This document shows, in pieces, positions 151 to 49,082 of a stretch of 64,000 bases of DNA. Source of the DNA: Alphaproteobacteria bacterium (lineage in GTDB: Bacteria > Pseudomonadota > Alphaproteobacteria > SHVV01); the NCBI GenBank assembly GCA_965261735.1, contig OZ253470.1:2016001-2080000 (forward strand), in the 5' to 3' direction. The stretch's first letter is position 1. Each line of letters starts with the position of its first letter. The translations under genes and the position numbers were made by a program. Below the pieces are notes generated by a model, which saw only the letters and a list, made by a program, of their open reading frames with translations, searched no databases and had not been told where the DNA came from.

Positions 151-2184
151 GCGAGGACGCGCGGGACGCGTGACCCGGTCCGGCGCACTATGCGCGCCGC
201 TAATCGCGCGACGCTCCGGTGGGGCGATTAGCCGCCTCGATTGCCTTCGACCGGCAGCGTCCGCACGACCGCGGTGAGCGCGTTTACCGAAGCGGAGTTC
301 AAGAAGATCGTTGGGGGGGCCGTAGGCGGGCGGCGAGACGCGCCAGCCGGATCGGGCGGCGGCCGGCGTCGCGTCGCCCGAACCGGCATCGTTCGCGGCT
401 CCGTCGCGCCACGCGACCTCGACGAGTTCGACCGGCTCCTTGAAGCCCTTGAAGTCCTGCGATCCGCCGTCGACGAACGTGATGTTCTTGCCCGCGCATA
501 AATCGCGCACCGCGGCCGAGACGAGAATGTCGTTGCCCTTGGCGGCGCCGCACAGGCGGGCGGCGAGCTGTACGGATGTGCTGAACAGATCCCCGTCCTC
601 GCGGATAGGCTCTCCGGCGCTGATGCCGATGCACAGGCCGAGCGGCAATTCCGGACACTCGCGCGTATGCCACTCCGCACCCCGCTGCATCTCGACCGCG
701 GCCTCCACGGCCGCCGAGATGCGCTTGAACGCGGTCATAATGCCGTCGCCGGTGTGTTTGATCTCGCGGCCCTCGAACCGCTGGATGGCACGGCGCACGA
801 TGTCGTTGTGGGCGTGCACGAGAGCCTGGCTGTGGGCGTCGCCGTGATCCTGGGTAAATTGAGTCGAGGACACGATGTCGGTGAACAGCACCGCGACGGT
901 GCCCTCGCCGCTCCGCTGGTCGCGCGGCTTGTTCCAGGCATCGAGGGCTGCCACGAGGTCGGCGCCGATTCCGGGCGGCGCATCGCCGGCACCCGTTGCG
1001 ACATCCCTATCGCGCAGATAACGCTCGATCGCGTGGCGCCCGGCGTCGAACATCTCGCTGCTCCGCGGATCGGCGAAGTAGCTCTCGTAGTTGGCGACGA
1101 AGCGCCGCGCCTTGCGCGCGTTACGGCCGAGGACCTCGATGCAGCTTCGCAGCACCTCGGGGTAGGCCGCCCCGTCGAGGTCCTTGGCTTCCAGGTAAGC
1201 CTCGCAGGCACCGGCGACGAAGAGGTGACAGCCGAAGGTGTTGGACGCGTTGAGCCGACCGCCCTTGACGTATTGCTGCGAATCCTTGAGATGGCCGAGG
1301 CAGCGGCCGAAGAAAACGAGGATGGCTAATTTCGCTTCGTCGAGCAGCTCCTCGCTCACCACCGCATTGATATCGACTCCGGCCTCGTCATCGTCAAACC
1401 ACGGGTGGTCCTCGCCCGCCTCCGAGCGTGCGCCGTCCTCCTCCTGGTCGGCCGCATCGGCCACGGTTGCGGGCGCATCGTTCTTGTTTCGTGAGTTGCC
1501 CGCGGGGGCCTTATCAGCGGCCGCGGCCGCGACGGTGGCATTGAGGAGCGCCGTAAACTCTTCGCGCGAGTAGAAAAAGGGAACGAGCGCAACGACGAAG
1601 AGAATGGCGGCGACCGCGAATATCTTGATTTGCGCGTTCTGCTGACCCGCGAATGCGGCATACTCCCCGAACGCGGAAGAGTTGCCCGCGGCCGACAAGA
1701 GGTAAACCAGCCCCAGCGCCAACACCGCGCCGCCCGCTAGTACACCGAAGATCTTGTAGGCGAAGACGTAGGGCGCGGGGCTCGCTGCGCGCGCGGGCAT
1801 CAACGCCGACCCGACGGTCGCGTGGCCTTCGGGCCTACTGGGCGGCGCGGCGGCGCGCGCCTCCACCCGGCTCTCGCGCGCGGGCTCGCGCTGTTGTTGT
1901 GCGGGCGCGGACTTGGACCGGCGATCCGCGCGCGGCCGAATCGCGGCGCCCCGAAAGTTCGTCACGCCGGTGCGCTTAGCGTCGCTGTAGGTCTCGACTT
2001 CTCGCGTGGTTCCGTCGTTCTGGTTGAACACCTCCTTGATGACGCTGACCGCCTCGACGGACGCTTCGTCGAAGACGGCCTCCGCGCGCGCGACGGCGTC
2101 GTCCCGGCCTACGCCCTCGACGCGATCGCTCAGCCGCCAGCGGCGCTCCTGGTAGGCATAGATTTCGTATGTGACAACGGGCAT
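124..2184 (-). CDS. Membrane-anchored class III adenylate/guanylate cyclase with uncharacterised N-terminal and central domains
   Basis: VLFTDIVSST, IKHTGDGIM and DLFSTSVQLAARL motifs; two TM helices; probable start MPVVTYEIY at 2184. Confidence 0.85.
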   Translation of the reverse strand: MPVVTYEIYAYQERRWRLSDRVEGVGRDDAVARAEAVFDEASVEAVSVIKEVFNQNDGTTREVETYSDAKRTGVTNFRGAAIRPRADRRSKSAPAQQQREPARESRVEARAAAPPSRPEGHATVGSALMPARAASPAPYVFAYKIFGVLAGGAVLALGLVYLLSAAGNSSAFGEYAAFAGQQNAQIKIFAVAAILFVVALVPFFYSREEFTALLNATVAAAAADKAPAGNSRNKNDAPATVADAADQEEDGARSEAGEDHPWFDDDEAGVDINAVVSEELLDEAKLAILVFFGRCLGHLKDSQQYVKGGRLNASNTFGCHLFVAGACEAYLEAKDLDGAAYPEVLRSCIEVLGRNARKARRFVANYESYFADPRSSEMFDAGRHAIERYLRDRDVATGAGDAPPGIGADLVAALDAWNKPRDQRSGEGTVAVLFTDIVSSTQFTQDHGDAHSQALVHAHNDIVRRAIQRFEGREIKHTGDGIMTAFKRISAAVEAAVEMQRGAEWHTRECPELPLGLCIGISAGEPIREDGDLFSTSVQLAARLCGAAKGNDILVSAAVRDLCAGKNITFVDGGSQDFKGFKEPVELVEVAWRDGAANDAGSGDATPAAARSGWRVSPPAYGPPNDLLELRFGKRAHRGRADAAGRRQSRRLIAPPERRAISGAHSAPDRVTRPARPRLGGWPARG
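228..325 (+). pseudogene. C-terminal remnant of a GYD-domain protein
   Basis: Reads LAASIA-STGSVRTTAVSAFTEAEFKKIVGG with frameshifts, resembling the GYD C-terminus (GxVRTxTLxAFTExEFxKI); no N-terminus. Confidence 0.4.
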
Positions 2185-46276: not shown

Positions 46277-47074
46277 ATGATGGCGGCCGATCTCCTGCGG
46301 AGGATCACCCTGACCCTGCGACTCTACGCCATGACGTGCGGCTGGCTGACCCTGCCGAGGTGGACCTTTCTCGTTGGGGCCGAGGGTACGCTGCACGTTC
46401 CGGTCCCGTCCTACCTGATCGATCATCCCAAGGGGAAGCTGCTGTTCGACAGCGGCCTCCACCTCGCCACCCAGACCGATTCGGTTGGCTACCTCGGTAC
46501 TACCCGCTCGAAGCGCCTGGCGATCGAGTTCAAGGCCGGCGACGAGCTCGCCGCGCGCCTCGAGACGATGGAGGTCGACGTCCGCGATATCCGTTATCTC
46601 GTCAACTCGCATCTCCACTTCGACCATGTCGGCGGTAACGCCCAGATTCCGAACGCGGCGCTGGTGATCCAACGGCTCGAGTGGCAGGCCGGGCGCGACC
46701 CCGACTTGATTGCCGCCATGGGCTACCAGCCGTCGGACTATGACCTCGGGCACGACGTGATCGAGGTTGTGGGCGAGCACGACGTGTTCGGCGATGGCAC
46801 CGTGGTGTGCCTGCCGACGCCCGGCCATACGCCCGGCCATCAGTCGTTGCGCGTCAGACTTGACGGCGGCGAGGTCGTATTGGCCGGCGATGCCTGCTAC
46901 CTGCGCGAATCACTTCGCGACCTGCATCTGCCGAGCTTTCTACACGACGAGGCGCGGTTGCTCGCCTCGCTGCGGCTCCTGCGCGAGTTCGCGGCGCGGG
47001 GGGCGCGTATCTTCTACGGCCACGATCCGCGGTTTTGGCAGGGTGTGCCGCAGGCGCCGGCGGCGGTCGTCTAG
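46277..47074 (+). CDS. N-acyl homoserine lactonase family (AiiA/AttM-like) MBL hydrolase
   Basis: YLIDHPKG, SHLHFDHVG, TPGHTPGH, GDACY, GHD. Confidence 0.88.
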   Translation: MMAADLLRRITLTLRLYAMTCGWLTLPRWTFLVGAEGTLHVPVPSYLIDHPKGKLLFDSGLHLATQTDSVGYLGTTRSKRLAIEFKAGDELAARLETMEVDVRDIRYLVNSHLHFDHVGGNAQIPNAALVIQRLEWQAGRDPDLIAAMGYQPSDYDLGHDVIEVVGEHDVFGDGTVVCLPTPGHTPGHQSLRVRLDGGEVVLAGDACYLRESLRDLHLPSFLHDEARLLASLRLLREFAARGARIFYGHDPRFWQGVPQAPAAVV

Positions 47075-47508
47075 GCTCCGGGCGCGGGCGCGGGAGCTGA
47101 GCGCTTCTTGCGGCCGCGGCCCGTTTCGGTGCCGAGGCCCATCGAGCGCGCCAGTTCCGAGCGGCGTTTCGCGTAGCTCGGGGCGACCATCGGGTAATCG
47201 GACGCCAGCTTCCAGCGTGCGCGGTACTGATCGAGGCTCAGCTGGTGCGCGGCCCACAGGTGGCGCTTCAGCGCCTTGAGGCGTTTGCCGCACTGCAGGC
47301 AAATGACGGCGTGCGGCGTGATCGAGCGCGCGAGCGCGACCGCCGGCCTGCCGTCCACGGCCGCGGTACCGCCAAGATCGAGTGAGGACAGGGTTTGATG
47401 GACTTCGCGCAGCAGGTGCGGCACACGGTCGGCTGCCAGTGTGTTCCGGCCGGCGTAGGAAACGACGATTTCCGCGGTCATATCGAGCAATTGTCGGTCG
47501 ATGCGCAT
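47071..47508 (-). CDS. mucR: MucR/Ros family transcriptional regulator
   Basis: TAEIVVSY N-domain, CLQC...LKRHLWAAH zinc finger, DYPMVAPSYAKRRSELA. Confidence 0.93.
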   Translation of the reverse strand: MRIDRQLLDMTAEIVVSYAGRNTLAADRVPHLLREVHQTLSSLDLGGTAAVDGRPAVALARSITPHAVICLQCGKRLKALKRHLWAAHQLSLDQYRARWKLASDYPMVAPSYAKRRSELARSMGLGTETGRGRKKRSAPAPAPGA

Positions 47509-47630
47509 GACGAAGCCATCGCTGTATCCGCGCGCGGAGTTCGCACGATGCCAGAGTAGGGGTGCAGATCCGGTTAAGCAGTAGCGTCCGTCACAGCCCG
47601 CGTCCGGGCCCTAGCGCGAGCCGCACGGCG

Positions 47631-47906
47631 TCAGCTGACGCGCGAAGCCAACAGGAAGAACAAGCCGACCAGGAACATGCCGCCGCCCAGGAATGTCGCC
47701 AATGCGGCGACATAGAATCCGATGTCGCTGGTCGGCAAGCGCGGCGGAGGTGGGTCTTGCCGGTCCGCGCGCTCGAGCTCGCGCAGCGCCCGATGAACCT
47801 CCTTAAGGAGCTGGGGCAGGCGGTCGGGATCGAACGTGTTGTTGGCCGCGTAGGACATGACGATTTCTGTGGTCCGCTCGAGAAGGCTTCTCTTGTGGTC
47901 GCTCAC
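47631..47906 (-). CDS. MucR N-terminal domain fused to a C-terminal TM helix (no zinc finger)
   Basis: SLLERTTEIVMSYAANNTFDPDRLPQLLKEVHRAL, PPPP linker, IGFYVAALATFLGGGMFLVGLFFLL; start may be GTG 47906 or 47948. Confidence 0.75.
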   Translation of the reverse strand: MSDHKRSLLERTTEIVMSYAANNTFDPDRLPQLLKEVHRALRELERADRQDPPPPRLPTSDIGFYVAALATFLGGGMFLVGLFFLLASRVS

Positions 47907-48068
47907 GACGCGGTCCGGAGGCGAGCGACGAGCCTCATCGGCCGCCACGGCCGCCGGCGAGCTGACTTCCGTACGATAGGAGGGTGGGGCCCGCGCGTTG
48001 GAGGCGCAGTAGCGTCGGTCACAGGTGAGATGACTCGCCGCGCCGACACGGGCGTCACTAGCTGCGGC

Positions 48069-49082
48069 TTAGGGGCAGCCTTGCGGGCTCCCGCCCGGTC
48101 CGGCCGCCGGCGCGATGTTGGAAAGCTCGCCAATGGCGGCCATCAGATGGAACTCCTGCGCCTCGCTGCGGATCGCCGCGATTTCGCTCTCCGAGAGGCT
48201 CCTCGTGAGAATGTCGAGGAAGTGCTCCGCATTCGCCGCGTCCTGTGACTTGGCGATCTCGAACCAGTAGTACGATTTACGGTAGTCGCGGGAGACACCT
48301 TCGCCAAGATGTACATGCGCCCGAGGAAGACCTGAGCCCTCGCGTGACCGTTCTTCGCTGCGATCTCGAAATGGCGCGCCGCCTGGTCGAGGCTCTTGCC
48401 GACGCCGTGTCCACGATAGTAGAGGCGCCCGAGATCGAACTCGGCATCGCTCAGTCCCGCCGCTGCGGCGCTCGCGAACAACTCGGCGGCGCGACCAAAA
48501 TCCTTCGGCACGCCGGCGCCGAAATAAAACAGATAGCCAAGGTCGCGCCTGGCGCGGCTATCTCCTTGGCGCGCCGCCTTGTCGAAGAGCGCCGCCGCTC
48601 GGGTCGGGTCGGCGGCGCTCCCCTTGCCGTCGCGGTACAGGACCGCGAGCTTGCGCTGAGCCTCGGTGTTGCCCCGGTCGGCGGCCTTGAGATACCACAT
48701 GAGTGCGCGCTCGTAGTCCTGCGCGATCCCGTTGCCCTTGGCGTAGTAGTCGCCGGCCCGCAGTTGTGCCGCCGGATGCCCCTGCTGTGCCGCCCGGATG
48801 AACCAGGCGAACGCCTCGGTCGCCGACTCCTGAACGCAATGTCCGCCCTCGTACAGGCGCCCGAGCCAGAATTGGGCGTCGGGCTCACCGGCCTCGGCCG
48901 CCGGTTTGAACTCGAGGTACGCCGCGCGATAGTCCCCCGCCTCGAAGGCAGCTTGGCCGGTCCCGATATCGGACGCGTCAGCCCCGGCTGCACCGAGCCA
49001 AGCGAGCGCAAGCGAGCGCAAGCGCGGAAACCAGCACGGCGGCGGCGTGGCGCAGGCTCCGGGCGCGCGGATTCGCGGACAA
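48069..49082 (-). pseudogene. Secreted SEL1-repeat protein with two frameshifts
   Basis: Repeats such as AQFWLGRLY and AEFDLGRLYYRGHGV; 10-bp duplication at 49001-49020 breaks the signal peptide; 1-bp loss near 48310. Confidence 0.8.

Follow-up and report, generated by a model that had tools for sequence, protein, structure and literature searches.

Can silencing by a MucR-type nucleoid protein be held in check by a truncated, membrane-bound relative of the silencer itself? This question is raised by a locus in a stretch of 64,000 nucleotides (nt) of an alphaproteobacterial genome (Alphaproteobacteria bacterium, assembly GCA_965261735.1, contig OZ253470.1, positions 2,016,001 to 2,080,000; hereafter the window), in which a small open reading frame (ORF) stands directly upstream of mucR2, a paralog of the regulator gene mucR. 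MucR/Ros proteins are H-NS-like silencers of alphaproteobacteria that control symbiosis, virulence, and cell-cycle genes, and the relief of MucR silencing is far less understood than that of H-NS silencing. We favour the reading, with a probability of roughly 0.4, that the small protein is a tail-anchored MucR decoy, which would work in the manner of H-NST (described below) and sequester silencer subunits at the membrane. This reading is preferred because the small protein combines the same N-terminal domain (NTD) and linker as MucR with a transmembrane (TM) helix instead of the DNA-binding domain, given that oligomers of the NTD have been published. The parts of the small ORF, all in window coordinates, are as follows.

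47631..47948, minus strand: small ORF, 105-amino-acid (aa) form, starting with GTG
47631..47906, minus strand: small ORF, 91-aa form, from an in-frame GTG at 47906 to the stop codon at 47631-47633; the preferred gene model
47907..47948, minus strand: 14-codon N-terminal extension of the 105-aa form (GTG at 47948), probably 5' leader
47772..47891, minus strand: NTD core, residues 20-59 (105-aa numbering), two antiparallel helices with homology to the MucR oligomerisation domain
47724..47771, minus strand: linker, residues 60-75, the ERADRQDPPPPRLPTSD region, whose prolines match the P-x-P-A-V-P linker of the family
47646..47723, minus strand: predicted TM helix (IGFYVAALATFLGGGMFLVGLFFLLA, residues 76-101); SRVS and the stop codon come next, which gives a tail-anchor topology

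The small ORF matches the Pfam family PF05443 (ROS_MUCR) with 31.1 bits (E = 2.7e-7; curated cut-off, 25.4 bits), but only over positions 2-47 of the 123-position profile, and nothing of the profile past position 47 is covered. BLASTP aligned its NTD (residues 20-59) with residues 5-44 of mucR2 without gaps, giving 22/40 identities and 28/40 positives (E = 2e-13). In the 17-sequence NTD alignment, the small ORF keeps the invariant V and P as well as the near-invariant T, I, N, L, and P columns, and its linker prolines fall in the near-invariant P column of NTD alignment A2. Beyond the linker the resemblance to MucR ends. No C-x2-C/H or C-x2-C/D zinc-finger motif was detected in the small ORF, nor any remnant of the finger in other frames downstream, and the basic C-terminal DNA-binding region of Ros/MucR is missing as well, the C-terminus consisting of the hydrophobic helix plus SRVS. 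The tail (residues ~76-101, 26 aa) reaches a best 19-residue Kyte-Doolittle mean of 2.18 (residues 82-100), and every 19-residue window starting in the first 64 residues stays at or below 0.06. These results bear out what the first-pass annotation had described from the letters of the window, namely an ORF of about 91-105 aa directly upstream of mucR on the same strand, an N-part with about 22/40 identities to the MucR N-domain (the BLASTP count is exactly 22/40 over the stretches it quoted), and replacement of the finger by a proline linker and a hydrophobic tail of about 24 aa.

A single hydrophobic helix in the last ~30 residues, without an N-terminal signal sequence, is the layout of a tail-anchored protein. 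Because the NTD and proline linker are kept and the only TM helix lies at the end, the small protein is predicted to be a tail-anchored MucR NTD that faces the cytoplasm. AlphaFold2, run on the 91-aa form with an 18-row alignment, placed helices at residues 3-22 and 30-49, then coil, and a further helix at residues 62-90, with no secondary structure at residues 50-61; confidence in this model is only moderate (mean predicted local distance difference test, pLDDT, 69.4; predicted template-modelling score, pTM, 0.30). Since the Pfam cut-off is passed on the NTD alone and the zinc-finger and basic-tail features are absent, the product is better described as an NTD protein derived from MucR than as a MucR regulator. 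Other resources added little: NCBIfam returned nothing meaningful and PADLOC no match for the small ORF, Rfam only a sub-threshold chance match, and a PDB sequence search only designed helical proteins (E ≥ 0.39). In the ESM Atlas, the single lead (0.75) was a cluster of 60 aa, 71% of it PF05443, and falls below the level that counts.

Where did the small ORF come from? The gene that follows it, and a short sequence that stands upstream of both, provide the answer.

47071..47508, minus strand: mucR2, a diverged but complete MucR/Ros paralog of 145 aa, with C70-x2-C73-x9-H83-x4-H88
48006..48024, minus strand: 19-nt box CTGTGACCGACGCTACTGC, preceding the start of the 91-aa form by about 100 nt
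47578..47596, minus strand: 19-nt box CTGTGACGGACGCTACTGC, preceding the mucR2 ATG by about 70 nt, within the spacer between the two genes

The two genes are arranged head-to-tail, the small ORF ending 122 nt upstream of mucR2, and the whole of mucR2 is covered by PF05443 (137.7 bits, profile positions 2-123). In a DNA alignment their leaders can be matched, with the mucR2 ATG opposite the GTG at 47906; therefore, the homologous start is that of the 91-aa form, and the 14-codon extension belongs to a stretch of 28 nt that has no counterpart in the leader of mucR2. The two boxes are identical at 18 of 19 positions and are the sole such sites in the 5.03-Mb genome at up to three mismatches; the chance expectation of a box pair like this in the window is 0.02. 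Because leaders, box, and start codons all align, the small ORF is, judging by sequence comparison, a tandem duplicate of mucR2 with the upstream region included. The duplication appears to be old, since the NTD coding regions are now only 62.5% identical in nucleotides and have a synonymous divergence (dS) of 1.09 (non-synonymous divergence, dN, 0.39) over 40 codons. The 19-nt box looks constrained because it has kept 18 of 19 positions while the coding NTDs fell to that level; the leader around it has also diverged between the two genes. Such conservation suggests that one regulator is common to both genes via this box.

The origin of the tail was also considered. It was not recognised as a frameshifted 3' half of mucR2 (local DNA score 14, against 12.1 ± 1.8 and a maximum of 19 for shuffles), nor as that of the canonical mucR found elsewhere in the genome (score 12; shuffle mean, 11.1), and no second copy of it exists elsewhere in the genome, either as protein or as DNA. 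Homology seems to stop where the DNA-binding domain would start, because the linker prolines still match the linker column of the family.

The functional argument rests on published work on the NTD. MucR self-associates via its NTD, for which the fragment 17-47 is sufficient, and MucR1 of Sinorhizobium fredii binds a DNA-binding-defective MucR2 through this domain (PMC9410896). The NTDs assemble into closed rings and open horseshoes of 9-14 protomers, connected by flexible linkers to the DNA-binding domains, and the residues V22, Y25, V26, L36, L39, and I40 are named for packing and oligomerisation (PMC11662661). When mapped by the spacing of the A2 family consensus, their equivalents in the small protein are V30, Y33, A34, L44, L47, and L48; four of the six named there are identical and two conservative, and mucR2 has both deviations as well. 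A predicted complex of the small-protein NTD (62 aa, A2) and the mucR2 NTD (57 aa, A4) scored 0.17 and 0.23 against a mark of 0.32, and, having been run without controls, it counts neither way.

Under the decoy reading, an old tandem duplicate of mucR2 would have lost its zinc-finger domain while the two-helix NTD and the proline linker stayed, and it would now end in a TM helix. Its NTD could then join MucR rings or horseshoes, with mucR2 as the first partner and possibly the canonical MucR as another. Each subunit that joins would add no DNA-binding domain and would pin the particle to the inner membrane, so the DNA-bridging valency would fall and the silencer would be drawn off the nucleoid. 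The outcome would be a built-in negative modulator of MucR2-type silencing, combining an H-NST-like effect with membrane sequestration. The scheme predicts that the small protein is translated, inserts into the membrane, forms hetero-oligomers, and affects silencing.

The same architecture would also suit a tether between nucleoid and membrane, in which mixed rings keep MucR2 active and hold the bound AT-rich loci at the inner membrane, for example, to organise or insulate them. Oligomers of 9-14 protomers could hold subunits of both kinds, and an anchored minority would then tether the particle without inactivating it (PMC11662661). However, nothing separates a tether from a decoy in the present evidence, doubts about expression and selection apply to both equally, and no comparable tether for other silencer families was found in the literature searched. 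We consider the tether improbable.

All of this presupposes that the small ORF is a maintained gene. Codon usage was scored as log-odds, with 752 long ORFs of the same genome as the training set. The NTD (codons 15-59) scored +0.53 and the tail (codons 76-105) +0.55, each the best of the six frames, to be compared with 0.63 ± 0.21 for real genes, 0.30 for mucR2, and a mean of -0.92 for wrong frames (95th percentile, 0.21; 99th percentile, 0.46). The 14-codon extension is not gene-like (-0.21). The GC (guanine plus cytosine) fractions at codon positions 1/2/3 of the small ORF are 0.68/0.47/0.80. Stop-to-stop ORFs with 90 codons or more were surveyed across the genome to see how seldom such a tail arises by chance. 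A window within the last 30 residues reaches 2.18 or more in 0.16% of the 25,855 ORFs that look non-coding; for the 15,210 of these with no more than 160 codons the share is 0.08%, and among coding-like ORFs it is 1.5-1.9%. The dN/dS of the NTD against that of mucR2, 0.36, also points to maintenance. Taken together, codon usage, the rare tail, the kept box, and the kept oligomerisation residues speak for a coding gene that is being maintained rather than for a random ORF.

The most serious rival is a decaying relic. According to this explanation, the small ORF is a mucR2 duplicate minus its 3' half, with a 5' remainder that still resembles an NTD; its product is not made or has no role, and it lies in a fast-evolving accessory locus. 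The scarcity of stop codons in DNA of 67% GC would be what leaves the frame open. Part of the evidence is hard to reconcile with it. Only ~0.1% of non-coding-like ORFs have so hydrophobic a tail, whose codon usage is gene-like and beyond the 99th percentile of wrong frames. A neutral copy at a dS of ~1 should hold indels, yet the NTD aligns ungapped over 40 codons with every conserved column kept, and the box has survived in a leader that otherwise diverged. Moreover, the small ORF is open, without stop codon, indel, or frameshift, in all three other strains (X6, X11, and X16; contigs of three other DNA runs, compared over a 1401-nt stretch). It is also open and free of indels in P0001, the 98% identical representative of the only protein cluster that has the same architecture.

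Several other observations weigh against the decoy and in part argue for the relic. The dN/dS of 0.36 between the two NTDs is a two-branch average over just 40 codons. Open frames are cheap at 67% GC, and many long, spurious, overlapping ORFs are present in the window. A promoter and terminator scan found neither, and no strong ribosome-binding site was recognised in the sequence. All three variable positions within the ORF are non-synonymous among the strains: 47917 G>C (P11R if translated; probably in the leader) in 3/3 other strains, A34E in X11, at the packing position equivalent to V26, and L99V, a conservative change in the tail, in X16 only (1/3). P0001 adds E59G. With ~234 non-synonymous and 81 synonymous sites, four of four non-synonymous changes would be expected about one time in three under neutrality; the pattern is uninformative and certainly not a mark of strong constraint.

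The neighbouring gene fares no better. In X16, mucR2 has a frameshifting deletion of 22 nt (47450-47471, codons 13-20) and the change S103F (47201) in the conserved DYPMVAP region, and in X6 an 8-nt deletion (47518-47525) lies 10 nt upstream of the mucR2 ATG. Elsewhere, mucR2 varies by one synonymous change and an in-frame 6-nt deletion. Because each variant comes from a single assembled contig, at depths of 2.3 to 11.2 (7.4 for mucR2 of X16 and 2.3 for X6), some of the mucR2 variants may be errors. Thus, mucR2, the presumed partner, may be dispensable in some strains, unless the contigs are at fault. In total, 5 of the 6 single-nucleotide polymorphisms and all 3 indels of the 1401-nt stretch fall within 47071-47948, as would suit a relic in a fast-evolving locus.

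Transcript data touch only the edge of the locus. In the metatranscriptome run X20, a single 184-nt contig maps there, at 48106-48289, comprising the 3' end of the Sel1-repeat gene upstream of the small ORF plus 37 nt beyond it. A second piece, at 47170-47204, differs by four mismatches and derives from the mucR of another organism.

The intact small ORF next to a disrupted mucR2 in X16 also bears on a further possibility, an autonomous small membrane protein that uses the NTD as a homo-oligomer scaffold and forms a ring of 9-14 TM helices, with a role apart from MucR silencing, such as a pore or scaffold. Two studies indicate that the MucR NTD alone is sufficient for rings (PMC11662661, PMC9410896), and the TM segment is glycine-rich (GGG...G; G88-G90, G95), which would allow packing of helix on helix. 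Nevertheless, a functional tie to mucR2 is made more likely by the box common to both genes and by their arrangement in tandem, and no family of such proteins was found. We give an autonomous role little chance.

A last point against the decoy is its distribution: the architecture was not found outside one cluster (at least 90% identity) in anything examined, and confinement to one species-level lineage in every search is what a relic would show. A word-indexed search produced one match among 54 candidates, which was P0001 (105 aa; cluster of 9 member sequences). A phmmer search of 1.84 billion representatives gave three, P0001 together with P0002 (61 aa) and P0003 (63 aa), the latter two tail-less; a single-sequence search over billions of proteins is blind to a diverged 40-residue domain. 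None of 598 pattern matches in a metagenome contig scan was confirmed. Among the best 120 of 859 matches of a 17-NTD profile to proteins of 30-109 aa, no hydrophobic tail was seen except that of P0001; the next-highest tails reached 1.62, in sequences that resemble frameshifted or chimeric ends. With a second NTD profile (7564 matches), no tail reached 1.5 among the 115 newly listed proteins. Ten multi-copy alphaproteobacterial genomes with 44 PF05443 matches held no N-only copy. Among 20 viral-contig loci, 19 encode full-length MucR and one an N-only protein without a tail. A class-wide PF05443 search could not reveal N-only copies because its best 150 matches were all full-length.

Some of these matches deserve a word of their own. 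P0003 and P0002 cover only positions 2-47 and 2-57 of the PF05443 profile, and both stop within the linker. Since P0003 was called on a 4.2-Mb contig (4,200,769 nt), it cannot be a gene cut off by the end of a contig; it may be a further NTD-only derivative or a pseudogene left by truncation. Five of the 44 matches in the multi-copy genomes show the opposite truncation and consist of the C-terminal, DNA-binding part only (G069:C28:34727-34828, G069:C92:70119-70196, G023:C61:30927-31154, G187:C321:14599-14817, and G034:C39:1304-1399).

Weighing all this, the evidence is roughly balanced: a functional modulator peculiar to one lineage and a duplicate in slow decay are supported to about the same degree. 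We regard the decaying duplicate as a real possibility, short of an even chance. Two things lessen the weight of the decoy reading: the protein is known from one lineage only, and the locus shows signs of weak constraint. The proposal of the first-pass annotation is reasonable and has held up in part: the architecture and the pairing with mucR are borne out, whereas homologs outside one cluster were not found and the strain variants are all amino-acid changing. It had named a lack of homologs with this architecture as a reason to give up the idea, and such a lack is partly seen, in that a single cluster of at least 90% identity has the architecture.

Besides the small protein, a soluble family of NTD-only MucR-like proteins was detected. 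It comprises four near-identical clusters of 82-83 aa (P0137, P0138, P0173, and P0174, with 11, 18, 1, and 3 member sequences, respectively). One member of the family is encoded at 1482-1733 (plus strand) of the viral locus L047 (contig IMGVR_UViG_3300009481_003215). Its ORF matches only positions 4-48 of the PF05443 profile (35 bits), has no C-x2-C motif, and is overlapped at its 3' end by a 341-aa ORF. This protein is a candidate for a truncated MucR carried by a phage, comparable to H-NST. Like the small protein, the soluble 82-83-aa proteins have the PF05443 NTD only and are probably truncated MucR derivatives; unlike it, they carry no hydrophobic tail (Kyte-Doolittle maximum, 0.54), and they form a separate lineage that is 24% identical to the small protein (alignment A5).

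The genome has three PF05443 matches in all, namely canonical MucR, mucR2, and the small ORF. The canonical MucR gene is remote from the pair (G000:C1:814634-814999, 175 bits; L001:1471-1959, minus strand) and is adjoined by a gene that we take to encode a Fur-family regulator. Its finger is of the C-x2-D type (ICLEDGKK), compared with C-x2-C in mucR2 (ICLQCGKR). The closest relatives of mucR2 among species-representative genomes are just 40-49% identical. PADLOC gave mucR2 only a weak match to AbiEi (E = 0.0094), which we took as chance, as no stretch passes alone. The family relatives G001-G003 have one MucR each, and the locus with mucR2 and the small ORF was not found in the family relatives searched. 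Of 401 genomes drawn as a sample of the class, 296 have PF05443, a tally that takes in two unpublished genomes (G245 and G046).

The neighbours of the pair are ordinary genes: a metallo-β-lactamase (MBL)-fold gene converges with mucR2, the Sel1-repeat gene precedes the small ORF by 194 nt in the same orientation, and the others encode an aldolase II and an acyl-CoA dehydrogenase. The MBL-fold gene (46346-47071, plus strand) and mucR2 overlap by 4 nt at their stop codons (ends at 47074 and 47071, respectively), so there is no space for a terminator between them. It has a 58% identical paralog in the same genome (G000:C1:922190-922909), and the copies in the relatives G001 and G004 are 59-60% identical, about as distant as this paralog. 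The region around the mucR2 pair may be lineage-specific. GC is 0.66-0.70 over the locus, the same as in the flanks, and no compositional anomaly was seen.

What would such a protein mean? Provided that it is produced and does bind MucR, nature would have evolved in it a dominant-negative subunit. Geneticists could use it as a simple means to titrate MucR oligomers, and it would exemplify the control of a nucleoid protein by membrane sequestration. As the first-pass annotation had supposed in not recognising the architecture as described, the literature searched contained no report of an NTD-only or membrane-anchored MucR. The table of a 2020 review enters 'Unknown' under truncated derivatives for MucR, where H-NS has H-NST and Rok has sRok (PMC7710501), and the present concept would fill this gap. 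A 2026 paper describes atypical but zinc-binding MucR2 and MucR3 proteins (PMC13297338). It is conceivable, although we lean against it, that the small protein is the first natural anti-silencer derived from MucR and the first membrane-anchored decoy of any xenogeneic-silencer family, co-regulated with its parent via the box; together with the soluble NTD-only proteins, it would then indicate that truncated dominant-negatives of MucR, as of H-NS, arose more than once.

Among known systems, the closest in working principle is H-NST, reportedly described by Williamson and Free as a truncated H-NS paralog of pathogenic Escherichia coli. H-NST is soluble and is encoded on horizontally acquired islands. 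It has kept the oligomerisation domain, has lost the DNA-binding domain, and is held to antagonise its parent by co-oligomerisation; the small protein, with its oligomerisation domain kept and its DNA-binding domain absent, belongs in this respect to the same class. The two differ in that H-NST is of an unrelated family and fold and lacks a membrane anchor, whereas the small protein is encoded in tandem with its parent, without compositional anomaly and with native codon usage, and has a predicted C-terminal TM anchor. The horizontally acquired carrier, which is a trait of H-NST, is not seen here, as GC equals that of the flanks and codon usage is native.

In layout, the small protein recalls ElaB and YqjD of E. 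coli, in which a cytoplasmic helical domain is followed by a single C-terminal TM helix and which hold a cytoplasmic partner, the ribosome, at the membrane. No sequence relationship exists between them, and the partner proposed here is a nucleoid protein instead of the ribosome. With canonical Ros/MucR proteins, the small protein has the NTD and linker in common and lacks the zinc finger and basic C-terminus. The closest case within the family is MucR2 of S. fredii, which is DNA-binding-defective and binds MucR1 through its NTD, providing a precedent for hetero-association; it is frameshifted at residue 114, keeps most of the zinc-finger domain, and has no membrane anchor (PMC9410896). In the small protein, by comparison, the entire DNA-binding domain is replaced.

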